Source of the DNA: an uncultured Muribaculaceae bacterium
GTDB lineage: Bacteria; Bacillota_I; Bacilli_A; RF39; UBA660
Direction of reading: 5' to 3'
DNA: 64,000 nt
NCBI GenBank assembly: GCA_964422195.1
Contig: CAYRAF010000001.1
Span: 946-64,945, forward strand
The translations under genes and the position numbers were made by a program. Of this stretch, positions 4,521-26,494 are shown in pieces; within the stretch, counting starts at the first letter, position 1, and every line of letters starts with the position of its first letter. The notes under the pieces were generated by a model. That model was not told the DNA's origin, did not search any database, and worked only from the letters and a program-made list of their open reading frames with translations.

Positions 4521-6623
4521 CTAATCAAAAATCCTTTCAGAATTCTCCCTTGTTATCATATCATTTGAATATCCACAATTTTTTCTAATAATATCCATTT
4601 TATTTCTATCTTTATTACCACACTTTGGGCATACTAATTCATTATTTTCTTCATTAAATTTACCTTCATATCCACACGCATGACAATAATCATATTTTGA
4701 ATTAAATTCCACATATAATACATTTTCATATGCATATTTTAAAATAGTCTCTAAATCTTCTAAACTTTTATATTTATCTGGAACATCTAAATATATAATA
4801 GATCCCCCACTAGTTAAATCTTGGAATTCTCCCTCTAATTTCAATCTTTCAAATACATCTATATCATTACCATCTATATGATAAGAATTAGAATAACAAT
4901 CCTTATCAGTAACATCTTTTATAATACCAAATTCCTCTTTATCACAACTTAAGAATCTACATCCTAAGAATGGTGATTCTACACCACATAAAACAAATCC
5001 TAAGCCAGTTTCTTTTTTCCATCTATTACAAGAATCAATCATAGTTTTCATTATTTTTAAAGCAAATTTCTTACCATTTTCTTCTCTAATTGTCTCTTTA
5101 GTTAAATACTTTACAACTTCATGTATACCAACATACCCTAATGATAAAGTAGAATAGCCATTTTTTAAAAGCTTATCTATTACTTCACCCTTTTCTAATC
5201 TAGATATTGCTCCATGTTGCCAATGTATAGGAGAAGTATCAGAATATGTACCAAGTAAAGAATGATATCTGCACATTAATGCCTCGTAACATAAATCTAA
5301 TCTTTCTTCCAATAATTCCCAAAACTTATCTATATCATTTTTAGACTCAATTGCTATTCTAGGTAAATTTAGACTAATAATTCCTTGATTAAACCTACCT
5401 TCAAATTTATACTTATTATTACTATCTTTATAAGGAGATAAAAAACTAGTACATCCCATAGGACTAAAAACATTACCATTATAGATTTCTCTCATCTTTT
5501 TCGCAGAAATAAAATCTGGATATAGTCTCTTAGATGAACACTTTAAAGCAAGTGTAGTTAAATAATCATATTTACCACCATTTAAACAATTATTCTCATC
5601 AAGCACATAAACTAATTTAGGGTATATTGGTGTTATTAATAAACCATCCTCATTTTTTATTCCCTCATATCTTTGATTAATTATTTCTTCTATTATCATT
5701 GCATTTTCTTCTATATAAGGATCGTCATCAGCTAATCTTAAAAACAAAGTAACTGAAGGGGCTTGACCTGTAGTAGTCATCAAAGTATTTATTTGATATT
5801 GCATAGTTTGTACCCCAGATGATAATTCTTCTTTAACCCGATCATCAACTATACTCTCAATTATCTTTTTATCTATTTTTCCTTTATATTTATCATTTAA
5901 TTTCTTTAAAAATTTATCACGAGAAACTCTTAAGTATTTTCCTAAATGACTAATATCTATAGATTGTCCACCATATTGATTAGATGCTACTGCAGCTATT
6001 ATCTGAGTAGTAACAGTACAAGCCACTTGAAAAGATTTAGGTGACTCAATCATTTTACCATTCATCACAGTACCATTATCTAACATATCTTCTATATTAA
6101 CTAAACAACTATTAAAAATTGGTTGAATAAAATAATCCATATCATGAAAATATAAGACTCCTCTATCATGAGCTTCTATGATTTTTTCTGGAAGTAATAT
6201 TCTTTGAGTAATATCTTTAGAAACTTGACCAGCAATAAAGTCTCTTTGTGTAGAAGCAATAGATATAGTCCTATTAGAAACTCCTGGTGTTAAATCTCTA
6301 TTTTCATTTCTTATAATACTTAAAATAGATTCATCGGTCTTATTAGCTTTTCTAACCAAAGCCCTAGTATATCTATAAACTATATATTTTTTAGCAAGTT
6401 CAAACTTTTTAAATTCCATTAATTTCTGTTCTATAATATCTTGAATATCTTCTACTAATATTCTCTTTTTATTTAAAGATTCTATATATTCTATAATCTT
6501 TTCAATTTGTTTTTGAGTAGCTTTTTGTTTACCCTCAACTTCTGCATTAGCTTTTGATATTGCAAGTTCTATTTTAGATTTATCATAATATACTTCTTTA
6601 CCATTTCTTTTGATTACTTTCAT
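4521..6623 (-). CDS. nrdD: Anaerobic ribonucleoside-triphosphate reductase (class III)
   Basis: N-terminal ATP-cone (VIKRNGKEVYYDKSKI). C-terminal zinc ribbon CHACG...CPKCG followed by a glycyl-radical tail. 700 aa. Confidence 0.9.
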   Translation of the reverse strand: MKVIKRNGKEVYYDKSKIELAISKANAEVEGKQKATQKQIEKIIEYIESLNKKRILVEDIQDIIEQKLMEFKKFELAKKYIVYRYTRALVRKANKTDESILSIIRNENRDLTPGVSNRTISIASTQRDFIAGQVSKDITQRILLPEKIIEAHDRGVLYFHDMDYFIQPIFNSCLVNIEDMLDNGTVMNGKMIESPKSFQVACTVTTQIIAAVASNQYGGQSIDISHLGKYLRVSRDKFLKKLNDKYKGKIDKKIIESIVDDRVKEELSSGVQTMQYQINTLMTTTGQAPSVTLFLRLADDDPYIEENAMIIEEIINQRYEGIKNEDGLLITPIYPKLVYVLDENNCLNGGKYDYLTTLALKCSSKRLYPDFISAKKMREIYNGNVFSPMGCTSFLSPYKDSNNKYKFEGRFNQGIISLNLPRIAIESKNDIDKFWELLEERLDLCYEALMCRYHSLLGTYSDTSPIHWQHGAISRLEKGEVIDKLLKNGYSTLSLGYVGIHEVVKYLTKETIREENGKKFALKIMKTMIDSCNRWKKETGLGFVLCGVESPFLGCRFLSCDKEEFGIIKDVTDKDCYSNSYHIDGNDIDVFERLKLEGEFQDLTSGGSIIYLDVPDKYKSLEDLETILKYAYENVLYVEFNSKYDYCHACGYEGKFNEENNELVCPKCGNKDRNKMDIIRKNCGYSNDMITRENSERIFD

Positions 6624-6669
6624 GAAAAACCTCCATTATCTTTATTATAATAAATTTTTAATTTATAAA

Positions 6670-6687
6670 TTGTTGCTTTTGCAACAA
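6670..6687. promoter_or_regulatory. Perfect 7-4-7 palindrome TTGTTGC-TTTT-GCAACAA. Putative FNR/CRP-family operator for nrdD and the divergent regulator gene.
   Basis: Seen directly in the sequence. The centre lies about 41.5 bp upstream of the TSS predicted from the nrdD -10 (TATAAT at 6649-6644 on the minus strand). It also overlaps the -35 region of the divergent crp/fnr-like gene. Confidence 0.4.
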
Positions 6688-6740
6688 AAATAAAATATAA
6701 TATTTTTAAGCAAATACCAATTTAATAGGAGCTTTATTTT

Positions 6741-7376
6741 ATGGGAAAAATGACGTTATTTAATAACATTACAGAAGAAGATAAAAATAAATTATTAAAC
6801 TGTCTACAATGTCGTCAAGTTACATATAAGAAGGAACGTACTATCATCTCAAATTTAGTAAATACCCGTCTAATATGCATTGTTATTGATGGTATAGTAG
6901 ATTTAGTAAAATATGACTATAATGGAAACAGAACAATAATTGAAGAATTAGTTAAAGATGACGTTTTTGGTGAAGTGTTTTCTGCCAATCTTAGTAGCGA
7001 TATTGCAGTTGTTGCCAAAACAGACTGTGAAATTATGTTTTTAGATTATCATAACGTTATTACTAGATGTAAAAAAAATTGTCCTTTTCATGATAAACTA
7101 ATCGAAAATATGTTAAATATGATATCTAGTAAAATTATTGATAAGAATGAACGTATCGATGTATTAACTCAAAGATCAATTAGAGATAAGCTATTAAGTT
7201 ACCTAGAAAAACTAGCAAATCATAAACTATCTAAAACTTTTGTTATTCCTATATCATATACTGATCTAGCAGATTACTTATCGATTGATAGATCAGCAAT
7301 GATGAGGGAAATAAAAAAATTAAAAGATGAAGGATTTATAGATACAAATGGCAAAAAAATCACTATATTATATTAG
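6741..7376 (+). CDS. Crp/Fnr-family transcriptional regulator
   Basis: cNMP-binding beta-barrel plus C-terminal HTH (SYTDLADYLSIDRSAMMREIKKL). Cys-containing N-terminus (CLQC...C...C). Confidence 0.75.
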   Translation: MGKMTLFNNITEEDKNKLLNCLQCRQVTYKKERTIISNLVNTRLICIVIDGIVDLVKYDYNGNRTIIEELVKDDVFGEVFSANLSSDIAVVAKTDCEIMFLDYHNVITRCKKNCPFHDKLIENMLNMISSKIIDKNERIDVLTQRSIRDKLLSYLEKLANHKLSKTFVIPISYTDLADYLSIDRSAMMREIKKLKDEGFIDTNGKKITILY

Positions 7377-8349: not shown

Positions 8350-9441
8350 TTAATCTGCCTCCTCTGTTAACTTAACTTTAGCGGTATGTTCTTTACCATT
8401 TCTTATGTAAGTAATATTAACTGTATCTCCTACTTTATGTTTAAATAATTCATATCTTAAGTATCCTACTGAAACTACTTTTTGATTATCTATTTTTATA
8501 ATAATATCACCTTTTTTAATACCTGCTTTTCCAGCTCCAGAATTTTTATAAACTTCCGCAACTACAGCACCTTCAGTAATATCGCCAACATTAAATCCAT
8601 ATTGATATAAAGCAGTAGTATTAGATACATTTATTAATGTAACACCAAGCATTGGTCTTTTGATCGCTTTTCCACTTTCTAATTCATTTATATGTGCCAT
8701 AGCATACTCTATAGGAATAGCAAATCCCATACCTTCTATTTCGTCTTGAACTAATTTCATTGAATTAATTCCAATAACTTCACCATTTATATTAAGTAAA
8801 GGTCCACCAGAATTACCTGGATTAATAGCAGCATCAGTTTGTAAAACCTTCATAGCATAATTTGCTGAAGAAGAATCACCAACAGCTACTTCTACTATTC
8901 TATTTCTACCTGATAAAATACCACTAGTTACTGTTCCTCTATAATCATATCCAAGCGGAGAACCAACAGTAAATACTGAATCCCCTAATTTAGATTTTTC
9001 ACTATTACCAATCTCTGCAACTGCTAATACCTTATTTGCAGGTATTGTGATTACAGCTAAATCTAAGTACTCATCTCCTCCAACATAAGTAGCTTTTACT
9101 TCTTCATCTGTTGATAAAGTTATCCTTATATCTTTGGAACTTGAAACAACATGATAATTAGTTAATATATACCCCTTATCATTTATTTTTTTATAAACAA
9201 ATCCAGTTCCACTACTAGCTAATTTATTATTAGAATAATTTCTTATTAATACAACAGCATTATATACTTTTTCTACAGAAGCACTAATACCATCTTTATC
9301 AATAATAGTTGTTTTTTTATAAACTGTACTATTTTCAAATAATTTTTTACATAGTGGACTAGTCATAAAGAAAAACATACAAGCTGCCCCAACTATCACT
9401 GAAAATATTACTAAACATATTCTTATACTTTTTTCTCTCAT
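8350..9441 (-). CDS. htrA: HtrA/DegP-family serine protease with PDZ domain, membrane anchored
   Basis: N-terminal TM. Catalytic triad context: H..D and GNSGGPLLN. C-terminal PDZ domain. Confidence 0.85.
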   Translation of the reverse strand: MREKSIRICLVIFSVIVGAACMFFFMTSPLCKKLFENSTVYKKTTIIDKDGISASVEKVYNAVVLIRNYSNNKLASSGTGFVYKKINDKGYILTNYHVVSSSKDIRITLSTDEEVKATYVGGDEYLDLAVITIPANKVLAVAEIGNSEKSKLGDSVFTVGSPLGYDYRGTVTSGILSGRNRIVEVAVGDSSSANYAMKVLQTDAAINPGNSGGPLLNINGEVIGINSMKLVQDEIEGMGFAIPIEYAMAHINELESGKAIKRPMLGVTLINVSNTTALYQYGFNVGDITEGAVVAEVYKNSGAGKAGIKKGDIIIKIDNQKVVSVGYLRYELFKHKVGDTVNITYIRNGKEHTAKVKLTEEAD

Positions 9442-10388
9442 TATAACCTCTCCATTTCTATATTCTTTATATCTTCCCAGTTAGAAGGAAATCCCATCCT
9501 ATCATATACCTTATTGATTGTTATAGTATGTAAATTATATTCTAAGTTGTTTATACACCTCTTTATCTCTTCAACCATATTAGAAAACTCATATTTACTA
9601 AGCATTCTCTTTAATATTATAACTAAAGCAAACAAATCATCTTTACCATAAATATATTCGCCATCCATTTTATCTATATTAAGTAATTTATGATAAATAC
9701 AATCATCTATAGAAACCTTAGTTCTATTCTCATAAACTATATCTTCATGAGCACATAAATTACGATAATTAGCCAATATTGGTAAATACCTATTCAATTC
9801 CTCTACACTTATATTATATTGATCAGCCAAAGCTTTTTGATCATCAATTTTTAATATTGCAAATAATTCAGTAACTATTCCAAAGGATAAAACTTTAACT
9901 AATACCCATAAAGGAACATAACCATAATTAGTAATATAATGAAGCGTCGCAGAATGTTGAGCACCATTTGCTCTTACTTGCTTCTTCATCTTTTTTATTA
10001 AATCATTTACTTGCTTACTCTTAGCTGAATCTTCAACAAAGTTTTTAGGATTCAAATAATCTTTTTCTTTATATCCATATTTTTTTGATAATTGATAGGA
10101 TATCATAGATTTCAAATTATTTTCAATAACTAATAAATTTTTAAATAAAATATATCTAAAATCGCGATCAAATAGGAATAAGCTATATAATTCTTCAAAA
10201 GTAGTACCAGCTAAAAAAGATTTATCTTTACTAGACTTCATAAATAAATGTCTATATCCATTTATAAAGAAATAATTCTCTCTAAATAAAACTTCTTTAG
10301 CTAAAGCTTCATCATTAATTAATAAACCTTTAAATTTAAGAATTTCTACTTGTTCATCTAAATTTTTAAATTGCTTTATCCCCGCCAC
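9441..10388 (-). CDS. Abi_2 (AbiD/AbiF-like) abortive-infection family protein
   Basis: The N-terminus (KQFKNLDEQVEILKFKGLLINDEALAKEVLFRENYFFINGY) matches the Abi_2 family signature. Its stop overlaps the htrA start (TAATG). Confidence 0.55.
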   Translation of the reverse strand: MAGIKQFKNLDEQVEILKFKGLLINDEALAKEVLFRENYFFINGYRHLFMKSSKDKSFLAGTTFEELYSLFLFDRDFRYILFKNLLVIENNLKSMISYQLSKKYGYKEKDYLNPKNFVEDSAKSKQVNDLIKKMKKQVRANGAQHSATLHYITNYGYVPLWVLVKVLSFGIVTELFAILKIDDQKALADQYNISVEELNRYLPILANYRNLCAHEDIVYENRTKVSIDDCIYHKLLNIDKMDGEYIYGKDDLFALVIILKRMLSKYEFSNMVEEIKRCINNLEYNLHTITINKVYDRMGFPSNWEDIKNIEMERL

Positions 10389-11325: not shown

Positions 11326-11356
11326 AAAAAAGAAACTTTTAAGTTTCTTTTCTTTA
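11324..11356. terminator. Bidirectional rho-independent terminator between convergent genes
   Basis: A8-AGAAACTT-TTAA-AAGTTTCT-T4 hairpin, seen in the sequence. Confidence 0.45.
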
Positions 11357-11388
11357 CAATTAAACTACATAATATTCTTAAAACTTAT

Positions 11389-12921
11389 TTACTTCTTGTC
11401 TATCTTATCTTTTACAAAGCTTGCAAGGGCATTATTATCAATTGCATTATTAACCATTTTCATACCAAAACTTTTTGTTTTACCTACTTGCTTTCCTGGG
11501 TTAGTACCATGAACTATAGTATTATTAGCCCCATCCATTCGAGCATTACTAAGACCTTTCTTGGTTTTAATGAAATCATCAACCTGTCTTAGGTTAGTCA
11601 TATCACGTTTTGTTTCTTTTTCATATGTATGTCTAGCTCCAGTATTACGATATTTAGCATATATAATACCAAAGTAAATAAAACCACCAAATAGGAATAA
11701 CCAACTATAATCAGAATCAACAAAGAACATCATTAAGAAACATAATATTTCTATAATAGTTGAAATACCAACTAGTTTAGGCATATGAATAGGAACACTT
11801 CCCATTGTTTCTTTTGTTCTAGCATTAACTGCAACATAGTGAAGTAATTTTTTATCCCCACTAACCTGTTGATAACTATATAGCCATACTGGCAAATATG
11901 CTGCTTGCCATTGCTGACCTTTAGTATTCATATCTTCACTGGACCAAGCAACTCCACGATCATATTGCTTTAATGTATCATTTGCTGCAAAACGAGCAAC
12001 ATCTTTTGCTTGAGTATCCACTAATGTTTGTAAATCATCTATATTTGTATCACGCTTTTCAGAAGTATATCCTTTTAAATAATTAGCATTATATTTAACA
12101 CAATTTTCTGTATCAAAAGGCATAATAGCATTAATAATATTATTGGTTTTTTCTTTTGATGTAGTATTCAAGCGATCTGAACTTGATTCAACCGATAATC
12201 CTTGTATAGTTAAATCAAATTCTCTTTCTACATGATATAAATCAGCATCATATCTAGCTTCTTGATCATCACCAGAACCTACATAATACTTTCTTCTTAG
12301 ATGTTCTCCTTCACCATTTAAATTAACATGAGCATTAACATCAACTAACATATATGGAAAATATACTCCCATAATATTATTTGTAGTAAACTCAGCTTTA
12401 AATTTTGGATGAGCAAAAAATTTTCTTTTTCCAACAAATTGTTCAATAGAAACTTGTGCATCATTTTTAGTAACATTAAAAGGTAATACAACATCTGGAA
12501 CAGCGCCGTTTGGTATTTGCTCATTAACAGATAACGTATTTCTACACCAGTGACATCTAGCTTGGTTAGCAGAAGCTGTATCAATAACAACTTCTGCACC
12601 ACAACTACTACACTTAAATGTTAATACATCTTTAGTATCAGCCACTATATTTTGAGCACCTGAACCAATTACTTTTCCTTTTAATGAACTAATATCTTCC
12701 ACCATTCCTTTTACCTTTTCAGGTTCAAATTCATGGCGACAAAAGTTACATCTTAGTTTTCCATTTTTTACATTTGTTTCTATATCTGTTGCTCCACACT
12801 TTGGACATTTGTTTTGTCCATCTTTTGCTCCTACATCTGTTTTAATAACAGTTGTTTCTGAAGATGTAGTAGGAACTTCTTTATTCTCTGGAGCAGCCAC
12901 CTTACTATCATCATTATTCAT
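11389..12921 (-). CDS. YdjG/YdjH-like protein: two N-terminal zinc ribbons plus C-terminal TM helices
   Basis: CPKCG...CNFC and CSSCG...CHWC ribbons. C-terminal hydrophobic helices. Sits upstream of, and in an operon with, the SPFH protein, as in the B. subtilis pspA-ydjGHI arrangement. Confidence 0.5.
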   Translation of the reverse strand: MNNDDSKVAAPENKEVPTTSSETTVIKTDVGAKDGQNKCPKCGATDIETNVKNGKLRCNFCRHEFEPEKVKGMVEDISSLKGKVIGSGAQNIVADTKDVLTFKCSSCGAEVVIDTASANQARCHWCRNTLSVNEQIPNGAVPDVVLPFNVTKNDAQVSIEQFVGKRKFFAHPKFKAEFTTNNIMGVYFPYMLVDVNAHVNLNGEGEHLRRKYYVGSGDDQEARYDADLYHVEREFDLTIQGLSVESSSDRLNTTSKEKTNNIINAIMPFDTENCVKYNANYLKGYTSEKRDTNIDDLQTLVDTQAKDVARFAANDTLKQYDRGVAWSSEDMNTKGQQWQAAYLPVWLYSYQQVSGDKKLLHYVAVNARTKETMGSVPIHMPKLVGISTIIEILCFLMMFFVDSDYSWLFLFGGFIYFGIIYAKYRNTGARHTYEKETKRDMTNLRQVDDFIKTKKGLSNARMDGANNTIVHGTNPGKQVGKTKSFGMKMVNNAIDNNALASFVKDKIDKK

Positions 12922-12924
12922 AAG

Positions 12925-14151
12925 CTATAGTCCTAAAACTTCTGCTTTTACTTTATCATATTCTTCTTGTGAAATAGCTCCAGCATCAAGAAGTTTTTTC
13001 ATTTCTAATAGCTTTGCAGTTGGATCTTGAGCTGGTGCAGCTTGAGTTTCTGGTGCTGCAGCAGGTTGTTGATTAAATCCTGGTTGGTAAGCAGGTGGAG
13101 TATTAGGTTGTTGCATACCTCCCATCATACCACCGGCAGCATTCATACCCATTCCCATAAAGGCCATACCTGCTCCTCCTCCGTTTTCTCCAGCAGCTTG
13201 CATACCACGAGCAACAGATTGTTGCATAAACGCATTTCCTCTTGCTCCACTTAATGCATCAGCAGATTTAACATCTTTCATTAATTGTTTAGTATCTTCA
13301 TCATATTCAATAGCTAAAATAGCTGTTTTTACGATTTCAAGTCCACGATCAGTTTTCCATTGATAAGCATCTTCTACAGCTTGAGCCATAGCTTGTGCAA
13401 ATCCAATTTGATCTCCTTGAATCTTAGAAATTCTATTTCCTTTTGAAGGATCATTTGTATAATTTGAGAATGCAGCAGATAATGTACCAACTACTTCATT
13501 AAATAATTGTTCTCCTGCAGGATTATCCATATCTGCAAAATCAAATATTGGTGCTCCTGGCTGTAAATAAGATGCAGGAACAAAGTTCTTAACAAATAGT
13601 AATGGATCTACTATTTTTAATGTATAAGTACCACGAGTTACAGCTCCTACTTGTGTACCAAAGAAAGCATCATCCCAATATATTTCAGATTGTGTTCCAA
13701 ATCTGTTATTAGGAATTTCCTTTAAATTAACATAGAATGCTAATTGTTGTGCTCCTGGTTGACCACCAAATTTTACCTTTTCCCATGTAGACTTAATTGT
13801 TTGTCCAAAAATACCATCTCCAGCAAACATAGATTTTGAATTAGGATCATCAGATCTATATTCAAATCCACCTGCTTCGGCCACTATACCTGTTATTTGT
13901 CCATCTTGCATTGTAATTAATGCAGTGCCTTCAGGTACAATTATTTTACTTCCGTTTGTAATAATATTTTCATTACCTTTTGTGTTTTCTCCTCTTCCGT
14001 TATTTGTTCCTTGTGGAACAGCTTGAAATACTGCAGCTGTTGGTGTAATATCACTTCTTGGTGTATAAAAATCTTTCCATTGATCAGCAAAGGTTCCACC
14101 CAAAGCTCCAGAAAACGCTTTAATAAATCCCATAAAATACCTCCTTATCAT
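12925..14151 (-). CDS. SPFH/band-7-like protein (COG4260 virion-core-like, YdjI-like) with Gly/Met-rich linker and C-terminal SHOCT domain
   Basis: Matches the YdjI family pattern. The C-terminus (LLEMKKLLDAGAISQEEYDKVKAEVL) is a typical SHOCT domain. Confidence 0.6.
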   Translation of the reverse strand: MIRRYFMGFIKAFSGALGGTFADQWKDFYTPRSDITPTAAVFQAVPQGTNNGRGENTKGNENIITNGSKIIVPEGTALITMQDGQITGIVAEAGGFEYRSDDPNSKSMFAGDGIFGQTIKSTWEKVKFGGQPGAQQLAFYVNLKEIPNNRFGTQSEIYWDDAFFGTQVGAVTRGTYTLKIVDPLLFVKNFVPASYLQPGAPIFDFADMDNPAGEQLFNEVVGTLSAAFSNYTNDPSKGNRISKIQGDQIGFAQAMAQAVEDAYQWKTDRGLEIVKTAILAIEYDEDTKQLMKDVKSADALSGARGNAFMQQSVARGMQAAGENGGGAGMAFMGMGMNAAGGMMGGMQQPNTPPAYQPGFNQQPAAAPETQAAPAQDPTAKLLEMKKLLDAGAISQEEYDKVKAEVLGL

Positions 14152-14312
14152 TTTAAGATTTATTTAATAGATAGATAAAATTCATTATCATCCCTATCCT
14201 TTTTAATTATATCATATTTTTTTATATTTAGAATTAAAAAAAACATCGAATTTATTTCAATGTTTTTTATTGATTTTATCCTAATAATTTCTAGTTTAAA
14301 GATCCAAGCACA

Positions 14313-14930
14313 TTATTTTATTTCTATATTAATAAGTTCATTATTATCATCAAACTCCAATTTAAAAATTTCACAATTTTTTATTACCCCTTCTAATAAT
14401 ATTTTACATTTATAACTATATCTTAATTTATCATCAACAAGTTCAATATCACACCATTTTCTTAATAAATATGAAATAGCTGTAGCATGACTAACAATTG
14501 CAATTCTTTTTTCTTTACATTCATTTAAAATTTTCATAATTATAGCGTACATTCTATTCCTTACTTCTTTTTGACTTTCACCATTACCATATTTATAATT
14601 TTCATCTAAGAACTGTTTTCTTTCAAAGTTTTCAGGTAATTCTCCCCAATATGATATTCCAAATTTTCTTTCTCCTAAATCGCTAACTACATTTATCTCT
14701 AAATCATTTTTTTCTGCAATATATTTAGCCGTTTGAATAGTCCTAACATAATTTGAAGAAAACAAAACATCAATGTTAGTTAATTCTTTAGATGTAAGCT
14801 TTTCCTTTGCTAAATTCTCTCCTTCTATCGAAAGACAATACTTTTCGTTTTGAAGCTGCATTTTATCACTATTGTATTCATTATTAACTAAGAAAGCTTT
14901 TGAATGCCTTATTAAGTATAATGTTGTCAT
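14313..14930 (-). CDS. Histidine phosphatase family protein (PGM-like)
   Basis: N-terminal LYLIRHSKA (RHG-type motif). Later SHATAI His motif. Confidence 0.7.
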   Translation of the reverse strand: MTTLYLIRHSKAFLVNNEYNSDKMQLQNEKYCLSIEGENLAKEKLTSKELTNIDVLFSSNYVRTIQTAKYIAEKNDLEINVVSDLGERKFGISYWGELPENFERKQFLDENYKYGNGESQKEVRNRMYAIIMKILNECKEKRIAIVSHATAISYLLRKWCDIELVDDKLRYSYKCKILLEGVIKNCEIFKLEFDDNNELINIEIK

Positions 14931-14975
14931 AAATTAATTACCTCCATATAATTATTAAAAACTAGTTTTATATAC

Positions 14976-15449
14976 TTAGTATATAATTTTATCATCTTTT
15001 TCTAAAAAGTCATTAAATGTTTTTATAGTTTCATCTCTATAAATAGATTTTAATTCTAATTTATCACTATTAGATTTTATTTCTATTCCTTTAATGAAGT
15101 CATATATATAATCATCTTTAAAACCAATTTTAGCAGCATCATCAGTAGTATTTCCATAATATACAATTTTGATATTAGCCCAGATTATAGCAGATAAACA
15201 CATTGGACAAGGATAACAAGTTGTATATAATTCACATTCACTCAAATCATAAGAACCTAGAAATTTACAAGCATTCCTTATAGCAACTATTTCTGCATGT
15301 GCAGTAGGATCGTTAGAGCTTAAAACTTGATTTGACCCCTTTCCTATAATCTTACCATCTTTTACAACACAAGCTCCAAAAGGACCTCCAGCATTTGTTT
15401 TTAAATTTTCTTCTGCTAATTCCTTAGCCTCTTCCATATATTTATTCAT
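14976..15449 (-). CDS. guaD: Guanine deaminase (CDA fold, GuaD-like)
   Basis: GGPFGACVVKDG...SNDPTAHAEIVAIRNACK...CYPCPMCLSAI aligns closely with B. subtilis GuaD. 157 aa. Confidence 0.75.
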   Translation of the reverse strand: MNKYMEEAKELAEENLKTNAGGPFGACVVKDGKIIGKGSNQVLSSNDPTAHAEIVAIRNACKFLGSYDLSECELYTTCYPCPMCLSAIIWANIKIVYYGNTTDDAAKIGFKDDYIYDFIKGIEIKSNSDKLELKSIYRDETIKTFNDFLEKDDKIIY

Positions 15450-15489
15450 ATTATCTCCTATATCCTCTTATCAATATCTTAGTATTTTT

Positions 15490-15930
15490 CTATTTTGTTT
15501 TGTAATTTTTTAAAAATACTTCTAATTGTTCTTTATTATCAAAAATATCTTCAAAAATATTATACAATGTATCGGTAGTTTCATATTCACCTATTGCATA
15601 GCATTTTTTCCCTAATCCATAGGCTATCCCTGATTCAATATGCGCAGCTTTTCCTGCAGGTAAAACTAATAATAAATTCCTAGAACTTTTCTCTCCCTCT
15701 AAATCATCATGAAAAAGATTCAATACAATATCACTTTTTAACCCTAATGATTCAAATTCCTGCTGTCTTTCTTCTGGTGTTTGATCTTTATTACCATATC
15801 CCCAATTATCCTCATTTTTTAAAAAGCAATAATAAGAAATACTATATTTATCAAACATATCACAAATTCTTAATATATTATCTTTATTTCTTGCTCTACC
15901 TGCAATAAAAAATTCATATTTAATATCCAT
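15490..15930 (-). CDS. Nucleoside 2-deoxyribosyltransferase-like protein
   Basis: N-terminal FFIAGRAR and C-terminal HIESGIAYGLGKKCY resemble the DRTase-fold motifs (AGP...E.G.A.GKP). Confidence 0.5.
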   Translation of the reverse strand: MDIKYEFFIAGRARNKDNILRICDMFDKYSISYYCFLKNEDNWGYGNKDQTPEERQQEFESLGLKSDIVLNLFHDDLEGEKSSRNLLLVLPAGKAAHIESGIAYGLGKKCYAIGEYETTDTLYNIFEDIFDNKEQLEVFLKNYKTK

Positions 15931-16057
15931 ATTACCAACTCCAATATAATTATATCATATAAATTCTTAATTTGTTCACCTAGCTTGTTCTACTAGCTTA
16001 AGATAAATAAAGGGTTTGTAAAGTTTTGTAGCCTACATAACAGGGTTCCAATGTTCT
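15931..16057 (-). repeat. Leader/promoter module copy A. Contains a GTAGGCTAC palindrome, GCTAG-N2-GAAC direct repeats, an extended -10 TGATATAAT and a GGAG RBS.
   Basis: Near-identical to the copy at 18209-18335 and related to the copy at 17157-17290. Each sits immediately 5' of a minus-strand gene. Confidence 0.6.
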
Positions 16058-16101
16058 TATTGATATCTTAGTAATTTTTTACATATTTTTAAATTATATT
16101 A

Positions 16102-16130
16102 TTGATTACAGAACATTTGTTTGCTATAAT
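16102..16130 (+). promoter_or_regulatory. Sigma-A-type promoter for the small toxin-like mRNA: TTGATT-17 nt-TGcTATAAT
   Basis: Seen in the sequence. The predicted TSS at about 16138 coincides with the start of a 12-nt sequence (GGATACGTTTGA) that is complementary to 16360-16371. Confidence 0.45.
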
Positions 16131-16195
16131 ATATCTTGGATACGTTTGAAATATATCAGATGTTTTCCCTTCTAATTAAGAAGGGAGGTGGTATC

Positions 16196-16285
16196 GTGAC
16201 TAAAAGAGAGAAATCTCTATTTTTCATTATACTCCTTCTATTTATTATAATATTTATACTCTTGTATATTTTATTTTTTAGATAG
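16196..16285 (+). CDS. 29-aa hydrophobic peptide VTKREKSLFFIILLLFIIIFILLYILFFR. Candidate type I toxin.
   Basis: Strong SD AAGGGAGGTG, 5-nt spacer, GTG start. The SD is sequestered by the upstream CCCTTC/GAAGGG hairpin. Single TM helix with a charged N-terminus. Not in the ORF track because it is too short. Confidence 0.45.
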   Translation: MTKREKSLFFIILLLFIIIFILLYILFFR

Positions 16286-16287
16286 AA

Positions 16288-16399
16288 ATTAAAAACATCT
16301 GATTTCAACAATCGTTGACTTCAGATGCTATCCCAAGGGATTACGTCTGATTCGAGCAATCAAACGTATCCTTTTTTATTATATGAAGTTTCCCTCATC
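16288..16399 (-). ncRNA. Putative antisense antitoxin sRNA convergent with the toxin mRNA 3' UTR
   Basis: Minus-strand promoter TTGATA-17 nt-TGaTATAGT (plus coordinates 16435-16407). The minus-strand terminator hairpin CATCTGA...TCAGATG (16296-16327) is followed by a T-run, right next to the toxin stop codon. Overlap with the toxin mRNA is about 90 nt. Confidence 0.3.
16338..16378 (+). terminator. Putative terminator of the toxin mRNA, also the 3' half of the 5'/3' terminal pairing
   Basis: GGAT(T)ACGT...ACGTATCC followed by TTTTTT, seen in the sequence. Confidence 0.35.
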
Positions 16400-16478
16400 T
16401 GTATACACTATATCATAAATTTGAATTTTTATCAAGTTCTATAAACTTCTATCAATATCTTAGTGTTTTTTTATTATT

Positions 16479-17156
16479 TTATTTTTTTAATTTTCTTAGT
16501 GTTAAGACATGCCAGTTTTTCTGTTCTTTTCCACCTTCGTTATGATATTCTTCAATTTCAAATAAATTTTTTCTTAAGTTATCAATATCCTCTTTACTAA
16601 AATAAGCAAAAAATCTTTTTTCTTTTGTTTGTTTATCCTCTAAAATTTTATAATTATATTTAGTTCCATTAGGAAGAATCTCTGCTTCTGGATGAACTTC
16701 TGCGTTTTGAAAATTAATTATTAATAATCCATTATCTGATAATCCATTATATGCTACATCAAACAATTTTTTCATATCATCCATATCCAAATGCGGATTT
16801 CTCCATGATACTATAAGATCTGCTTTAAAAGCAAAAGTATCATCATACTCGTCAGATAAAAAATTATACTTTTTAACTTTTTTAATGCCAATTCTTTCTT
16901 GTTCGTTTAAAAAAGCATCAACAGTGTCCGTAGCTATAACATCATAACCTGCAGATTGAAGCATAAAAGCAAGCTGTCCACAACCACTTCCAAATTCAAT
17001 TATTTTTTTATTCTTATCTTTTTGTAGACCAGCATCTACATAGTTAAATAATCTTTCCCATTTTTCTGTTTCAGGCTCAATTTTATTTTGTTCTATATAT
17101 TCAAGTGCTCCACCAGAATTATACATATTTATAGTTTTTGAATTATGTTGGCTCAT
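16479..17156 (-). CDS. Class I SAM-dependent methyltransferase
   Basis: Motif I IIEFGSGCGQLAF, acidic motif II VIATD. 225 aa. Confidence 0.8.
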   Translation of the reverse strand: MSQHNSKTINMYNSGGALEYIEQNKIEPETEKWERLFNYVDAGLQKDKNKKIIEFGSGCGQLAFMLQSAGYDVIATDTVDAFLNEQERIGIKKVKKYNFLSDEYDDTFAFKADLIVSWRNPHLDMDDMKKLFDVAYNGLSDNGLLIINFQNAEVHPEAEILPNGTKYNYKILEDKQTKEKRFFAYFSKEDIDNLRKNLFEIEEYHNEGGKEQKNWHVLTLRKLKK

Positions 17157-17290
17157 ACAATATACCTCCTATATATGTATATATATAATACCATAGTAAT
17201 TGCTACTTTGTCACCTAGCTGGTTCTATTAGTCTAAAATAGATAAAGGTTTTGTGAAGTTCTGTAGCCTACGGCCTCTAAAAAGTGTATA
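17157..17290 (-). repeat. Leader/promoter module copy B (diverged), with GTAGGCTAC
   Basis: Shares the GTAGGCTACAGAACTTCACAAAACCTTTATCTATTTTAGACTAATAGAACCAGCTAGGTGA core (minus sense) with copies A and C. Confidence 0.5.
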
Positions 17291-17309
17291 TTTTTAATAT
17301 TTAGGCATA

Positions 17310-17334
17310 GAAAAAAGCCCGCAAATACGGACTT
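17310..17334 (-). terminator. Rho-independent terminator. A paralogous copy of the rpsI terminator, preceded by a duplicated rpsI 3'-end fragment.
   Basis: Minus strand GTCCGTATTTGCGGGC + T6. The upstream 21 nt (AATTTAGTAAGAGATAGGAAA) are identical to the last codons and stop of rpsI. Confidence 0.5.
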
Positions 17335-17464
17335 TCCAAAAGCTTTCCTATCTCTTACTAAATTAGCGTCACTTTATTTATGCGAGTTTACGGACATTTT
17401 GTAGCCTACTCGTAGCCTATTCTTAGTAGTACCTTAGTAATTTTCTTCTTTTCTATATATATTA

Positions 17465-18208
17465 TTAATATCCTCCATCAATTACCAATATTTCACTATT
17501 AACATAGCTTGATTCATCACTTGATAAATAATAAATTGTTTTTGCAATTTCTTCTGGTTTAGCAAATCTTTCTAAATATATTTTAGCATTTTCATCATCT
17601 ATATATTCTTGCGGCAATTCTTTATTCATATCAGTATCTGCCCAACCAATTGCAACTGCATTTACTCTAATGTTTGGCTTAAACTGATATGATAAATCTC
17701 TAGTAAGACTCTGTAATCCTATTTTAGAGACATTGTAATCTAAACATTCAGGAGAAATAGTTTTTGTACCATTGGTAGATGAGACATTTACTATAGTACT
17801 ACCCTTTTTCATATATTTTGAAGCCTCTCTTGAAACAATGAAGGCACCAATTACATTTACTTCTAATGTTCTTTTAAACTCCTCAACAGTAATACTTTCA
17901 AAATCTCTATCAAATACAATTCCTGCATTATTAACTACAGCATCAATTCTACCAAATACATTTATTATTTGCTCAATCATATTTTTTACTTCTAATTCGT
18001 TAGACACGTCAGCTTTAATTGCTAATGCTTTATTGTTAAATTCTTTTTCAACATATTCTTTCAATTCATCTGCAGCACTTGCAATTTTATTATAATTAAT
18101 AACGACATTATAGCCTTCTGAAGCAAACTTAATTATAGTAGCTTTGCCTATTCCTCTAGCACTACCAGTTACTAAAACAACTTTTTTATCCATTATTATC
18201 AACTCCAA
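17465..18208 (-). CDS. Short-chain dehydrogenase/reductase (SDR, FabG-like)
   Basis: TGSARGIGKA cofactor motif, NAG, YNVSK catalytic motif. Confidence 0.8.
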   Translation of the reverse strand: MELIIMDKKVVLVTGSARGIGKATIIKFASEGYNVVINYNKIASAADELKEYVEKEFNNKALAIKADVSNELEVKNMIEQIINVFGRIDAVVNNAGIVFDRDFESITVEEFKRTLEVNVIGAFIVSREASKYMKKGSTIVNVSSTNGTKTISPECLDYNVSKIGLQSLTRDLSYQFKPNIRVNAVAIGWADTDMNKELPQEYIDDENAKIYLERFAKPEEIAKTIYYLSSDESSYVNSEILVIDGGY

Positions 18209-18335
18209 TATAATTATATCATAAAAATTCTTAATTTGTTCAACTAGCTTGTTCTACTAGCTTAAGGTAAATAGAGGTTTCCCGAAGACTTTGTAGCCTA
18301 CCTGTAGCCTACTCGTAGCCTACGACGCTAGAAAC
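18209..18335 (-). repeat. Leader/promoter module copy C, with three tandem 11-bp-period GTAGGCTAC palindromes (18293, 18304, 18315)
   Basis: Seen in the sequence. About 90% identical to copy A over roughly 75 nt, including the extended -10 TGATATAAT and the RBS. Confidence 0.6.
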
Positions 18336-18362
18336 GTTCAAAAAGAAGATTTTTAGTCATGC

Positions 18363-18388
18363 AAAAAAGCCCGTAATACGGACTTTTT
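18363..18388 (-). terminator. rpsI rho-independent terminator
   Basis: Minus strand GTCCGTATTACGGGC followed by T6. Confidence 0.55.
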
Positions 18389-18410
18389 GAAACATATTGA
18401 ATAGTATTTC

Positions 18411-18833
18411 CTATCTCTTACTAAATTGTGGTGCACGTCTTGCTTTCTTTAAACCTGGTTTCTTTCTTTCTTTTACTCTAGAATCTCTTGTAATGAACCC
18501 TTCTGCTTTAAGAATTTTTCTAAAACTTGTTTCACTTGTTGGATCAGTATCTTTATCCATTTCAAGTAAAGCTCTAGTGATTCCTAAACGAATTGCTCCT
18601 GTTTGACCTGAGAATCCTCCACCTCTAACATCTACTTCTACATCAAAAGTTTCATTTGTATTAGTAGCAACTAAAGGTTGAGATAAATCCATAACTAAAG
18701 TTTCATAAGGTAAATATTCATGAACATCTTTACCATTAACAGTAATCTTACCAGATCCTGGGATTAATTTAACTCTAGCAATACTAGCTTTTCTACGTCC
18801 AGTTCCAGTATAAACATTTTTATCTTTTGCCAT
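18411..18833 (-). CDS. rpsI: 30S ribosomal protein S9
   Basis: Canonical S9 sequence, C-terminal ...[11 protein letters not shown]. Confidence 0.95.
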
Positions 18834-18848
18834 AAATAAACCCTCCTA

Positions 18849-19277
18849 TTATATATCCATTTCTTCTGGTTTTTGTGCTGTATGTGGATGATTTTCATTT
18901 TCATATACAAATAATTTTTTGTACATTGCTCTTCCTAAACGGTTATGAGGAAGCATTCCTTTAACAGCTCTTTCCATCATTTCAATTGGATATTTTTCTT
19001 TCATAACTTTAGCAGTTCTTTCTCTAAGTCCACCTGGATACATAGAGTGATTATAATACATTTTCTTTTCTAACTTGTTACCAGTTAAAGCAACTTCTTT
19101 TGCATTAACAATTATTACATAATCTCCACAATCAATATGTGGTGTATATGTAGCTTTGTGTTTACCGCGAAGTATTACAGCAGCTTTTGATGCAACTCTA
19201 CCTAATGGTTTACCTTTAGCATCTATAACATACCATTTACGTTCAACAGCTTCTTTTTTTTGCATAAAACTTTTCAT
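18849..19277 (-). CDS. rplM: 50S ribosomal protein L13
   Basis: Canonical L13 ([17 protein letters not shown]...). Confidence 0.95.
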
Positions 19278-19383: not shown

Positions 19384-19452
19384 TAAATTTTCTATGATTT
19401 TCCTTAATTTTAAGTATTTTGTGCTATAATGATAAAGGAAGGTAGTGATAAA

Positions 19453-20082
19453 ATGGCATCTGCGATTATACATATTGCTGTAGCAAATGAGTTAAATAAA
19501 AAACTTAAACGTAATAGCTCTAAATTACTTATTGGTACCATCGCACCAGATATTTCTAAAGAAATAGGACAAAATAAAGTTAAAAGTCATTTTTTAGATA
19601 GTAAAGATACTGATATTCCGAATATTAAAAAGTTTTTAAATAAATATAAAAATAATTTAAATGATGATTTTGTATTAGGATATTATATTCATCTATATAC
19701 TGATTATCTATGGTTTAAGTATTTTGTTACTGAGTTTATACATGATAATATGATAACAAAATTAGATGGTACCCCTGTTAAAATAACAGATAATATGGCA
19801 ACACTATACATATATAATGATTACACAGATATGAATGTAAAAGTAATTGATGCTTTTAATTTAGATTTAAAAATCTTTTACAATGAAATTCCTATTCTAA
19901 AAGATATTATAAAAGAAATACCAATGAAAAATATAGATATTATTGTAAATAAGATAGGAAAAATAATAGAGGCATCTAAAGATAAAAAGAATTTAGTATT
20001 TAATATTGATAATATTAAACAGTTTGTAAGCACCTCAATTGAGTTGATAGAAGCAGATTTAAAAGATTTAAATATATTATAA
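19453..20082 (+). CDS. Hypothetical protein, possibly a metal-dependent hydrolase-like protein
   Basis: Start moved to the second ATG, which has an AAGGAAGG RBS and an upstream TGcTATAAT. No secure family assignment. Confidence 0.45.
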   Translation: MASAIIHIAVANELNKKLKRNSSKLLIGTIAPDISKEIGQNKVKSHFLDSKDTDIPNIKKFLNKYKNNLNDDFVLGYYIHLYTDYLWFKYFVTEFIHDNMITKLDGTPVKITDNMATLYIYNDYTDMNVKVIDAFNLDLKIFYNEIPILKDIIKEIPMKNIDIIVNKIGKIIEASKDKKNLVFNIDNIKQFVSTSIELIEADLKDLNIL

Positions 20083-24581: not shown

Positions 24582-25812
24582 CTAAATTACTAATAGCGCT
24601 TAATAGAGCTAATTTACCATATTCATATGTTAATGATCCCTGTTGATATGCAATATATGGTTCTCTAATAGGGCCATCACAAGATATTTCAATAGATGAG
24701 CCTTGAATAAAAGATCCACTAGCCATAATAACTTGATCATCATAACCAGGCATATCTGAAGGCAAAGCTAAAGCATTAGAATCAATTGCTGAAGCTTTTT
24801 GTATACCTTGAACATACTTAATTAATTTTTCTTTATCTTTAAATATAATATTCTGTACTATATCTACTCTTTCTTCATTATATTTAGGTTCTACTAAATA
24901 ACCTAAATTTTCCAAAACTTTGCTAGTTAAAAGAGCTACTTTTAAACTATTTAAAACTACTGTAGGTGCTAAATACAAACCTTGTAATATATATCGATTA
25001 ATTCCAAGCGTAGGTCCAACTTCATTTCCTTCCCCTGGTAAAGTTAATCTCTCCGCACATAAATCAACCAACTCTTTTTTACCAACTATATATGCTCCAT
25101 TTGGTGCTATTCCACCACCAAGATTCTTTATTAAAGACCCTACTGCTAAATCACAACCTATTTCTATAGGTTCTTTAGTAGTAACAAACTCACAATAACA
25201 ATTATCCACCATAATAATTATATCTCTATCAATTTTCTTAATAAACTTTACTACTTTTTCTAGCTTTTCTATAGAAATACTCTTTCTCGTAGAATACCCT
25301 TTGCTCCTTTGAATTTCAATTACTTTAACCTTTTCTTTACTCAAATAATCTTTTATTCTATCATAATCAAAATCATTATCTTTAAGTTCGATTTCATCAT
25401 ATAAAACTCCAAAAGATTTTAAACTAGATGGATTATCTTTTATACCAATAACTTCGTGAAGAGTATCATAAGGAGTTCCTGTTATACTAAGTAATCTATC
25501 ATTTGGTCTTAGTAAACCAAATAAAGCTACCGTTAAAGCATGTGAACCTGAAATAAATTGACTTCTAACTAAAGCACTTTCACTTTTAAAAATATCTTTA
25601 TAAACATTCTCTATTGCATCTCTACCTATATCATTATATCCATATCCTGTAGTTGAATTAAAGTGTACTTCACTAATATTGTTATCATGAAAAGCTTTTA
25701 ACAGTTTCATACTATTATTCATACAAATACTTTCATATTTATTAAATTCTTCTCTTAGTTCTTTTTCACTTTCATTGATAATATCCATATATTTATTATT
25801 CATTATTATCAC
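24559..25812 (-). CDS. YnbB-like PLP-dependent enzyme (aluminium-resistance / Cys-Met-metabolism lyase family)
   Basis: N-terminal region aligns with the B. subtilis YnbB family. 417 aa. Confidence 0.65.
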   Translation of the reverse strand: MIIMNNKYMDIINESEKELREEFNKYESICMNNSMKLLKAFHDNNISEVHFNSTTGYGYNDIGRDAIENVYKDIFKSESALVRSQFISGSHALTVALFGLLRPNDRLLSITGTPYDTLHEVIGIKDNPSSLKSFGVLYDEIELKDNDFDYDRIKDYLSKEKVKVIEIQRSKGYSTRKSISIEKLEKVVKFIKKIDRDIIIMVDNCYCEFVTTKEPIEIGCDLAVGSLIKNLGGGIAPNGAYIVGKKELVDLCAERLTLPGEGNEVGPTLGINRYILQGLYLAPTVVLNSLKVALLTSKVLENLGYLVEPKYNEERVDIVQNIIFKDKEKLIKYVQGIQKASAIDSNALALPSDMPGYDDQVIMASGSFIQGSSIEISCDGPIREPYIAYQQGSLTYEYGKLALLSAISNLGDNSDNK

Positions 25813-26494
25813 CTCTTAATATAATCAGAGAACCATTTTCTTTATTACCATTTAATATTTCTAAAACCACTTTACTAATCTCATCAGGTTCTATTAATTT
25901 AGCTTGTCCTATCCTTTTCATTTCATTTTTTAAAAATTCAGGATTCATTTCTTTAATAGACTCTGTATTAACATAATTAGGTGCAATTGTATAAAAATTA
26001 TTATTAGGTAGCGCATATACTAAAGACTTTGTTAATTGTATTAATCCTGCTTTTGATACAGCATAATCAATGTTATATTCATTATAAGTATATATACCAT
26101 CTGTAGATGAAATGTTGATGATAATTGATTCATTTAATAAATCTAATCCATTCTTTATTATTAAAAAAGGTCCAACTATATTAGTATCAAGTGTCTTAAT
26201 AAACTCATCTTTAGTTTTATCATAAATATTATTTCCAATATCTATACCTACATTATTTATAAGTAAATCAATATGTTTATACTGTTTTTTTATCTCCTGA
26301 TACATATTTATTATAGAATCTTCGTTAGTAATATCACATTGAAGTACTAATGCTTTATTTTTATAAGTACTAACTAAATTTTTATTATTATAGTATGTAA
26401 TTATGACTTCAAAGTCATTTTTTATTAAAGTATCTACAAGAGTAGTACCTATACCTATAGAACATCCTACTATTAAAGCAACTTTTTTATCCAC
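25796..26494 (-). CDS. SDR-family oxidoreductase
   Basis: VGCSIGIG cofactor motif, YAVSK catalytic motif. Confidence 0.7.
   Translation of the reverse strand: MDKKVALIVGCSIGIGTTLVDTLIKNDFEVIITYYNNKNLVSTYKNKALVLQCDITNEDSIINMYQEIKKQYKHIDLLINNVGIDIGNNIYDKTKDEFIKTLDTNIVGPFLIIKNGLDLLNESIIINISSTDGIYTYNEYNIDYAVSKAGLIQLTKSLVYALPNNNFYTIAPNYVNTESIKEMNPEFLKNEMKRIGQAKLIEPDEISKVVLEILNGNKENGSLIILRGDNNE

Follow-up and report, generated by a model that had tools for sequence, protein, structure and literature searches.

Why does the end of an essential ribosomal protein gene appear a second time, about one kilobase downstream of the gene itself? The question is raised by a 64,000-nt stretch of DNA (the window) from an uncultured bacterium placed in the RF39 lineage of Bacilli (GenBank assembly GCA_964422195.1, contig CAYRAF010000001.1, positions 946 to 64,945). 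On the minus strand of the window, rplM and rpsI, which encode ribosomal proteins L13 and S9, are followed by a gene for a short-chain dehydrogenase/reductase (SDR), and the tail of rpsI reappears beyond that gene. We describe the SDR gene as the cargo of a cassette that was inserted at the rpsI stop region, one of a family of such cassettes in related genomes, and weigh how the insertion may have come about. Coordinates are positions in the window (Table 1), and L-numbers (L001–L108) are labels of related loci or contigs.

The repeat of the rpsI end is real and non-random. Within the window, the 21-mer AATTTAGTAAGAGATAGGAAA has exactly two occurrences, both on the minus strand; chance would give 0.03 matches with up to three mismatches, and none of 100 shuffled sequences had two or more. 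Seventeen of its 21 nt are the final rpsI codons and stop (AA TTT AGT AAG AGA TAG), and the remaining four lie downstream of the gene. The initial annotation, which had picked out the repeat, assigned all 21 nt to rpsI and placed both copies one base too high (18408–18428 and 17345–17365). Each copy runs into an A-tract, a hairpin, and a run of six T residues; that annotation had also recognized both terminators. The two hairpins fold with equal stability, although an in-house terminator scan called neither. From the 21-mer to the T-run, the first copy measures 65 nt and the second 54 nt, so the earlier description of direct repeats of about 60 bp was fair. Pairwise alignment gives identity at 48 of 52 aligned positions with a single 13-nt gap, and fainter similarity extends about 15 nt beyond the T-run. 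On the 5′ side of the 21-mer, homology ends abruptly, the 44 nt to the left being 30% identical, as for random sequence. The copies are direct, lie 1,063 nt apart, and bracket a unit of 1.06 kb. This unit does contain the SDR gene and its leader, as first proposed, with one addition: the second copy is fused to a conserved cassette-end element, which we call E, so it is not free-standing.

What was the locus like before the SDR cassette arrived? In the nearest available relative (L003, RpsI 92% identical), rpsI ends 74 nt from the homologue of a ZIP gene, which is followed by Abi_2 and HtrA genes. The corresponding 7,085 nt in the window are therefore extra DNA. In a set of about 80 species, rpsI and Abi_2 are separated by anything from 88–200 nt to more than 9 kb, and the genes found in this gap are mostly in the rpsI orientation. 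Nine species with gaps of 88–200 nt have just a terminator and the Abi_2 promoter there; the gap in L080 is 368 nt. Hence the region downstream of rplM–rpsI is an insertion hotspot, as the initial annotation had suspected. A locus without the SDR gene, L025, is the cross-species equivalent of an empty site. Behind its genuine rpsI end stand a terminator, spacer, and degenerate repeat that match the window DNA downstream of the second copy with 81% identity over 97 nt. Next comes its methyltransferase gene, about 690 nt after rpsI, which is 84% identical at the nucleotide level to the one in the window. If the second copy were an independent functional element, such as the 3′ end of another gene, it should be found as such in genomes that lack the SDR cassette. 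What it matches instead is an rpsI end, and the second copy is a former or alternative end of rpsI rather than the end of any other gene.

The borders of the variable region have features of their own. The Abi_2-family gene (9441–10388, minus strand) and the gene for the HtrA-like protease (8350–9441, minus strand) are kept downstream of rpsI in about 50 species at 54%–80% identity. The pair marks the far edge of the region and is unusually core-like for an Abi-family gene. On the other side, a gene for a zinc-dependent phospholipase-C-like protein (19429–20082, plus strand) sits, in opposite orientation, between truA and rplM and is absent from that position in L003. Members of its Pfam family are found eight times between rpsI and Abi_2 in other species, which suggests that this gene, too, is mobile around the locus.

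Has the SDR cassette moved between genomes? SDR homologues at 76%–83% identity are abundant, and wherever a contig covers the upstream flank (L099–L103, L108), the gene lies 65–100 nt 3′ of rpsI and is preceded by a short terminator and a conserved promoter and 5′ untranslated region. In these genomes, SDR is 81%–84% identical to that of the window, whereas RpsI is 63%–74% and RplM 66%–71% identical. This is the reverse of what is expected from vertical descent. In L106, the rpsI 3′ region is only ~80% identical to the window and the tail reads CAATTCTCAAAGAGATAG. The SDR cassette at this locus nevertheless matches that of the window: ~850 nt, reaching from the promoter across SDR to block 4 of E, are 99.4% identical. 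The cassette ends in ...TGATAATTTAGTAAGAGATAG and is preceded by a type-B rather than a type-A terminator module. Together with the match to L025, these comparisons uphold the earlier suggestion that a cassette was inserted and show that it spreads horizontally. Variation is also seen at short range. L001, from the same species and with an identical RpsI, matches the window perfectly for 1,550 nt, from rplM to 35 nt into SDR, and then drops to 71%; it therefore holds a different SDR allele in the same slot (L001 1702–1819). Among L099–L102, which encode an identical SDR protein, a PNP_UDP_1 gene and a gene for a 346-aa protein are present or absent between the cupin and FtsK/FHA genes (~5100–7230), and the 3′ end of the cupin gene differs among L099, L100, and L102. 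Thus, the array varies between strains away from the rpsI end too. As a separate matter, the first 157 nt of L001 repeat downstream sequence in inverted orientation, which is probably an assembly artifact.

The same pattern recurs with other cargo. We searched related loci for a second copy of their own rpsI tail, and repeats were found 794 nt downstream in L009 (59 nt, 98% identical), 631 nt downstream in L028 (33 nt, 97%), 651 nt downstream in L046 (51 nt), and 1,434 nt downstream in L062 (79 nt, 92%). A single promoter-led gene lies between rpsI-tail repeats in L009, L046, L062, and L091. L093 is a two-cassette array in which rpsI is followed by two cassettes, each closed by E and an rpsI tail, giving three tail copies. 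A pattern drawn from E retrieved further examples from metagenomes: six of 14 matches were chance occurrences inside unrelated genes, and the other eight contigs share the architecture. Cargo identified in these cassettes includes GNAT (two clear cases and one weak case below the cut-off), NUDIX, and HIT proteins and five proteins without a Pfam match. After rpsI in L095 come a gene for a histidine-phosphatase-like protein, which forms the first cassette, then a toxin-antitoxin-like module and a GNAT cassette. Two contigs depart from the simple layout. In L087 (reverse-complemented, 2307–2600), two units of E, tail, and terminator stand back to back with four copies of GTAGGCTAC and no gene between them, and one of the tails has the rpsI-type CCACAA instead of CGCTAA. 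In L083 (reverse-complemented, 183–660), rpsI is seemingly truncated after about codon 105 and continues into an unrelated end of 14 codons, with E and the tail TAATTTAGTAAACGTTAA directly behind it; the contig may have lost DNA between rpsI and a cassette end, or be chimeric. Matches to a profile hidden Markov model of E lie on the rpsI strand only and, where rpsI is on the contig, always downstream of it. No blastn match to the stretch of E, tail, and terminator was found on phages or plasmids. In the viral contigs of IMG/VR, the E pattern had no matches, and a pattern of paired GTAGGCTAC had two unrelated matches at 48% guanine-cytosine (GC) content.

What does a cassette end look like? E is about 85–115 nt long and consists of approximately three TAAGA(C/T) repeats, one to four copies of GTAGGCTAC, and 35 nt that contain GCATAAATAAAGG and end in GCTAATTTAGTAA. 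The end of E is TAATTTAGTAA in all copies, 35 nt past the repeats, and the spacing from repeat cluster to core is 35 nt in 13 of 13 copies. With a model of eight E copies that includes the one in the window, nhmmer gives E-values of 1.6e-23 for the window and 1e-34 to 8e-26 for the other loci. Beyond tail and terminator there is a conserved spacer (...ACTTTTTAGAGGyC) and then a further GTAGGCTAC cluster, so that the complete junction between two cassettes, made up of repeats, 35 nt, core, terminator, spacer, and repeats again, spans ~230–260 nt. In the window, this spacer motif with its GTAGGCTAC follows the second tail, and it is conserved in L025, L087, L090, L094, L096, and L106. Six copies of GTAGGCTAC exist in the 64 kb, against 0.10 expected by chance; all six lie within 16028–18323 on the minus strand. 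A variant of the repeat, CAGCATACA, is found in L009 on both sides of the core, and L083 has GTAGCATAC. The rpsI-tail repeat is one type of junction within a modular family of cassettes that is built from E, GTAGGCTAC clusters, and terminator modules.

Where is the boundary between old and new DNA? To the left of the core, attL-like and attR-like junctions are 23%–32% identical over 44 nt, whereas the 18-nt core is 72%–100% identical. Repeat length varies from 33 to 100 nt across loci, and all repeats are direct. In L009, L046, L062, and L106, the rpsI-side copy retains the host codons TTCTCA where the E-side copy reads TTTAGT or TTAACA; the two copies in L091 diverge straight after AGTAA. These codon differences and the point of divergence would place the exchange at about AGTA/A. 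Among the E-linked tails, 13 of 15 retain Lys-Arg-stop, in six nucleotide versions, which fits each tail having once been a real rpsI end. Other ideas about the junction fell away. Local alignment of E to the upstream rpsI coding sequence was no better than to shuffled sequences, which gives no reason to derive one from the other. An inverted core copy (TTACTAA) at the start of E, which could pair with TTAGTAA, is not conserved across E copies. By inspection, a LexA (Cheo) box in the leader does not fit.

How could such a structure arise? We consider it moderately probable that the two tails are the attL-like and attR-like junctions of a Campbell-type insertion at the last rpsI codons, performed by a recombinase acting in trans. 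Specifically, a circular, single-gene cassette of ~1.06 kb would recombine with the final rpsI codons. The cassette would comprise a replacement rpsI end with stop codon, a terminator, a spacer, the 11-nt-periodic GTAGGCTAC repeats, its own promoter, SDR, and E. After insertion, cassette DNA would complete and terminate rpsI, and the old rpsI end and terminator would be displaced downstream and joined to E, where they would now terminate the SDR transcript. Repeated insertion would build a co-oriented array with the newest cassette beside rpsI, and arrays would later be remodeled by homologous recombination and by deletion between conserved modules. The recombinase would most likely be a tyrosine integrase with an accessory factor, encoded elsewhere. 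A site-specific recombinase is favored because E and the module after the terminator resemble the two arms of a complex attP, and because the 3′ end of rpsI is a known target of tyrosine integrases in those elements of Streptococcus that are integrative and conjugative (ICEs) or integrative and mobilizable (IMEs) (PMC4701971, PMC5090054).

Several observations weigh against a dedicated recombinase, most directly those on the enzyme itself. The window has 54 open reading frames (ORFs) of 110 aa or more; 53 of them were scanned, and none has a Pfam domain of a recombinase or transposase. When every ORF of 90 related loci was scanned for motifs, the matches were one to a serine recombinase (in L015, 5 kb from rpsI) and one weak, probably spurious, match of tyrosine type, and a Pfam census of 143 interval ORFs had no integrase among its 25 most frequent families. 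We infer the circular intermediate, the crossover near AGTA/A, and the enzyme from the junctions, and the empty sites are cross-species equivalents (L025, L003). Ordinary homologous recombination also acts at the locus, as seen from breakpoints within SDR in L001 and, in L106, within the leader and where block 4 ends. One cargo gene (MPKVIFKKM..., ~250 aa) occurs in three upstream contexts with different terminator modules, and the edge of its 5′ homology lies at the GTAGGCTAC cluster; such clusters may be crossover points and not arm sites. Gene conversion could homogenize the two tails in one genome, which would weaken the argument from the host-specific right half of the core. Lastly, the repeat in L028 (1340–2060) surrounds a NUDIX gene without E and without an evident promoter, and the NUDIX stop lies inside the tail-like copy; this is a different flavor of the same kind of event.

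Could homologous recombination have done everything? This is the main rival and, as a complete explanation, a rather unlikely one. A single ancient, illegitimate fusion of E to an rpsI tail would have been followed by RecA-mediated Campbell insertion, unequal crossing-over, and allelic replacement after DNA uptake, with the conserved inter-cassette modules serving as portable homology and no dedicated recombinase involved. The mosaic breakpoints of L001 and L106, which lie away from the core, are what this predicts, as are the differing cupin 3′ ends of L099, L100, and L102 beside an identical SDR protein. Moreover, all six left/right combinations around the GTAGGCTAC cluster are observed, no recombinase lies near any array, and the window has AddA-like and AddB-like genes. 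Junctions that lack tail and terminator, and the gene-less unit of L087, look like deletions between clusters. However, the stretches of shared identity measure just 21 nt in the window and ~10 nt in L091, which is very short, and an interspecies divergence of 8%–25% makes a poor substrate for RecA. Neutral decay of a relic would not keep the uneven conservation of E, the fixed 35-nt spacing, the phased repeats, and a repeat variant on both arms. The boundary falls at the identical nucleotide in every locus, although common descent would give the same result.

Slippage or unequal exchange could have duplicated the rpsI 3′ region locally and in tandem within this lineage, with SDR acquired between the copies or already there; such a duplication was the other option left by the initial annotation, and we regard it as very improbable. 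It would account for direct copies 1,063 nt apart with an exact 21-mer in common. However, the terminator modules that follow the copies differ in type, A being shared with L093 (where it is also 3′ of rpsI) and B with L025, L106, L087, and L090. In addition, the second copy is fused to an element present in other species and metagenomes, the same SDR cassette occurs in L106 beside a different rpsI, and the region leaves no trace in the close relative L003. Least probable of all is that the second copy records no recombination event and is an independently selected terminator module or an assembly artifact: intrinsic terminators can converge in form, the window is from a metagenome-assembled genome, and L001 of the same species starts with an inverted-repeat artifact, but 17 nt of coding sequence with a conserved Lys-Arg-stop have no role in termination, the E–core junction recurs in independent assemblies from other samples (L106 and the eight metagenome contigs), and the attL side is identical in L001 and L002.

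If site-specific insertion by a recombinase acting in trans is the better explanation, which known systems does it resemble? First, the streptococcal ICEs and IMEs that integrate at the rpsI 3′ end (e.g., IMESag-rpsI), and the integrase-less cis-mobilizable elements (CIMEs), share the target and carry a gene end that keeps the gene intact; they also show gene-end direct repeats at junctions, tandem accretion, and some units without an integrase of their own (PMC4701971, PMC5090054, PMC5704250). In the window, likewise, insertion is in the 3′ end of a gene with a replacement end (rpsI is intact, the displaced tail reads stop-FSKR-stop, and Lys-Arg-stop persists as described above), and direct core repeats stand at both junctions with a sharp homology boundary. 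The units at rpsI differ in being ~0.6–1.4 kb long, in combining a single gene, led by a promoter of its own, with a common end element, and in having uncultured RF39-like Bacilli as hosts. The window has no integrase, relaxase, or conjugation gene, and the related loci have at most one candidate recombinase. Thus, an element-encoded integrase is missing within or near the array; CIMEs rely on a related resident element. Second, sedentary chromosomal integrons also have co-oriented arrays of small, mostly single-gene cassettes at one fixed platform, a conserved 3′ element in each cassette, and, presumably, the newest cassette nearest the platform. The flavor of the cargo is similar too (GNAT, NUDIX, HIT, small enzymes, unknowns, and toxin-antitoxin-like modules). 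Unlike integron cassettes, those at rpsI each have a promoter and terminator, with predicted promoters in front of SDR, the methyltransferase-like gene, the gene for a 146-aa protein, and an antisense RNA. The target is duplicated, and it is an essential gene whose stop region serves as the platform. No intI lies beside the array (53 window ORFs; no recombinase next to rpsI in 90 loci). Nor does E form an attC-like hairpin: the consensus fold of eight E copies gives only a 7-bp hairpin within the GTAGGCTAC repeats, with −5.5 kcal/mol and no covariation. Third, a lambda-type attP also has a short core between arms with direct repeats at a phase of ~11 nt and a fixed distance (GTAGGCTAC on both sides here, TAAGA on one side). 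This likeness is one of layout only, and the clusters at rpsI also act as points of recombination and deletion. Fourth, there are the islands at the ssrA 3′ end in Dehalococcoides, which differ in being many kilobases long and in each having an integrase of their own. They are alike in that successive site-specific insertions at a conserved gene 3′ end leave serial direct repeats of that gene end; integration at ssrA is described for these tandem genomic islands (PMC3146451).

Other classes of repeat or mobile element do not fit. A dif/Xer module has a 28-bp site with two 11-bp arms and a 6-bp spacer; inspection of E copies finds GCATAA-ATAAAG-TGACG without an inverted TTATG arm, and neither gene orientation nor GC skew switches at the locus, which counts against a dif-like site. 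A transposon or insertion sequence is rejected because the repeats are 33–100 nt, compared with 2–14 bp for target-site duplications, are all direct, and come with no transposase domain in the window. Repetitive extragenic palindromes and bacterial interspersed mosaic elements are dispersed, GTAG-headed palindromes of 20–40 nt, unlike GTAGGCTAC, which has just 9 nt and is confined to one stretch of the window. Literature searches on integrases and integrative elements and on RF39 and gene cassettes gave no description of such arrays. The system is probably best described as a new form of site-specific integrative cassettes at a gene 3′ end, with a mechanism proposed from its junctions. That cassettes of similar build recur behind rpsI in many uncultured gut bacteria suggests a candidate gene-capture platform without an adjacent recombinase gene.

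Table 1. Features of the rpsI locus and its cassette array in the 64-kb window. Att-like and displaced status are putative.
Feature	Position	Strand	Evidence or remark
rplM (ribosomal protein L13)	18849–19277	−	Pfam Ribosomal_L13, E = 1.9e-48
rpsI (ribosomal protein S9, 140 aa); insertion target at its last codons	18411–18833	−	Pfam Ribosomal_S9, E = 7.2e-46
Core copy 1 (attL-like): last 17 nt of rpsI with stop, plus GAAA	18407–18427	−	Exact 21-mer
Terminator A (AAAAAGTCCGTATTACGGGCTTTTTT), present terminator of rplM–rpsI	18363–18388	−	−14.5 kcal/mol, z = −4.3
Spacer x1, terminator A to repeat cluster, 39 nt	18324–18362	−	Its end CTAGCGTC conserved in L093
Cluster 1: three GTAGGCTAC, 11-nt period	18293–18323	−	Repeat search
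Leader C: SDR promoter and ribosome-binding site	18194–18292	−	−35 TGAACA 18237–18242; TG-extended −10 TATAAT 18213–18218
Cargo SDR, 242 aa, ATG at 18193	17465–18193	−	Pfam adh_short_C2, E = 6e-59; full-length 242-aa homologues
Element E: E5′ with TAAGA repeats 17419–17448; cluster 2 AGGCTACGAGTAGGCTAC 17401–17418; block 4 ending ...GCATAAATAAAGTGACGCT 17365–17400	17365–17448	−	nhmmer E-value 1.6e-23
Core copy 2 (attR-like): with preceding T, TAA TTT AGT AAG AGA TAG (stop-FSKR-stop)	17344–17364	−	Exact 21-mer
Terminator B (GGAAAGTCCGTATTTGCGGGCTTTTTT), probably the displaced older rpsI terminator, now 3′ of SDR	17311–17337	−	−14.5 kcal/mol; homologous to rpsI terminators of L025 and L106
Spacer x2 17272–17310 and cluster 3 (one GTAGGCTAC) 17263–17271	17263–17310	−	Repeat search
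Leader B: promoter of next cassette, GTGACA ... TG-TATTAT 17185–17214	17157–17262	−	Promoter consensus
Next cargo: S-adenosylmethionine-dependent methyltransferase-like, 225 aa	16479–17156	−	Methyltransf_16, 21.5 vs 21 bits, E = 2e-4
Type I toxin-antitoxin-like cassette	16037–16468	both	Conserved 71%–82% in L062, L095, L028
Cluster 4 (16028–16036) and leader A with promoter 15949–15978; short junction without tail and terminator	15931–16036	−	Repeat and promoter search
Older, partly decayed cargo	14313–15930	−	146-aa protein 15490–15930; E5′ remnant 15464–15489; cytidine/dCMP-type deaminase 14976–15449; histidine phosphatase 14313–14930
Complete variable island, rpsI to conserved ZIP/Abi_2/HtrA genes, 7,085 nt	11326–18410	−	rpsI 74 nt from ZIP homologue in L003

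What else does the array contain? The order on the minus strand is truA, rplM, rpsI, SDR, the methyltransferase-like gene, a 548-nt spacer, the gene for the 146-aa protein, and genes for the deaminase, the histidine phosphatase, an SPFH/SHOCT protein, and a zinc-ribbon protein, followed by the conserved ZIP, Abi_2, and HtrA-like genes; the phospholipase-C-like gene interrupts the series between truA and rplM on the plus strand. A ACTAAGATA-type motif is found 3′ of every cargo gene, terminators lie between cassettes, and the TG-extended −10 promoters named above are consensus matches only. The leader in front of SDR is 93%–95% identical to that in front of the 146-aa gene (15931–16027), and the SDR promoter and 5′ untranslated region are conserved in L099, L103, and L106. 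Assignment of the methyltransferase-like gene is narrow: its top Pfam matches, Methyltransf_12, _23, and _25 (E ~1e-5), are under their curated cut-offs, and Methyltransf_16 is the sole, marginal pass. The 146-aa protein has no Pfam match.

The 548-nt spacer holds the toxin-antitoxin-like cassette. On the plus strand, a promoter (16102–16132) and a GGGAGG Shine-Dalgarno sequence (16183–16191) precede an ORF for a hydrophobic peptide of 29 aa (16196–16285; MTKREKSLFFIILLLFIIIFILLYILFFR), and a convergent, TG-extended promoter lies on the minus strand (16406–16435). Remnants of E5′ stand on both sides (16446–16468 and 16037–16080). The small hydrophobic peptides of this module have no Pfam match. 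No known RNA family was found in 15400–18500 at E-values up to 1, and transfer-messenger RNA is the only one in the whole window. The 7-kb island shows no compositional anomaly, and its distal end (11326–11420) has no rpsI-tail remnant.

The distal part of the island encodes an SPFH/Band-7 protein with a SHOCT tail (12925–14151, minus strand), next to a 510-aa multi-zinc-ribbon protein (11389–12921, minus strand); a homologue of the former, 65% identical, lies in the corresponding interval of L066. Elsewhere in the window, a second SDR gene (25796–26494, minus strand, 232 aa) has short stretches 77%–78% identical to the cassette SDR, and this low-GC, RF39-like genome has a clear homologue of Spo0A (55226–56032, minus strand; Spo0A_C, E = 4e-41).

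What would this mean for the biology of these bacteria? RF39 relatives are uncultured gut organisms with small genomes and little-known means of gene exchange. In Firmicutes-type bacteria, gene capture of the integron type is regarded as all but absent. We tentatively propose, as a possibility short of a probability, that RF39-like gut Bacilli have a previously undescribed gene-capture platform, in which the rpsI stop region would be the attachment site and self-contained cassettes would be inserted and excised by a dedicated recombinase whose gene lies elsewhere in the genome or on a helper element. If true, this would be a functional analogue of the integron in Firmicutes-type bacteria, with double-stranded, lambda-like att sites and with toxin-antitoxin-like cassettes in its arrays. 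The last codons of an essential ribosomal protein gene are a defined site where small, expression-ready genes get added, exchanged between species, and pruned, with cargo that includes SDR, methyltransferase, GNAT, NUDIX, HIT, deaminase, and phosphatase genes as well as unknowns. If homologous recombination alone is responsible, the locus would still clearly exemplify how conserved non-coding modules provide portable homology through which cassettes are exchanged. The anatomy of the junction is conserved enough for searching. If a trans-acting recombinase exists, the arrays would represent a new cassette system, a possible tool for site-specific integration, and a readout of recent gene flow in gut metagenomes.

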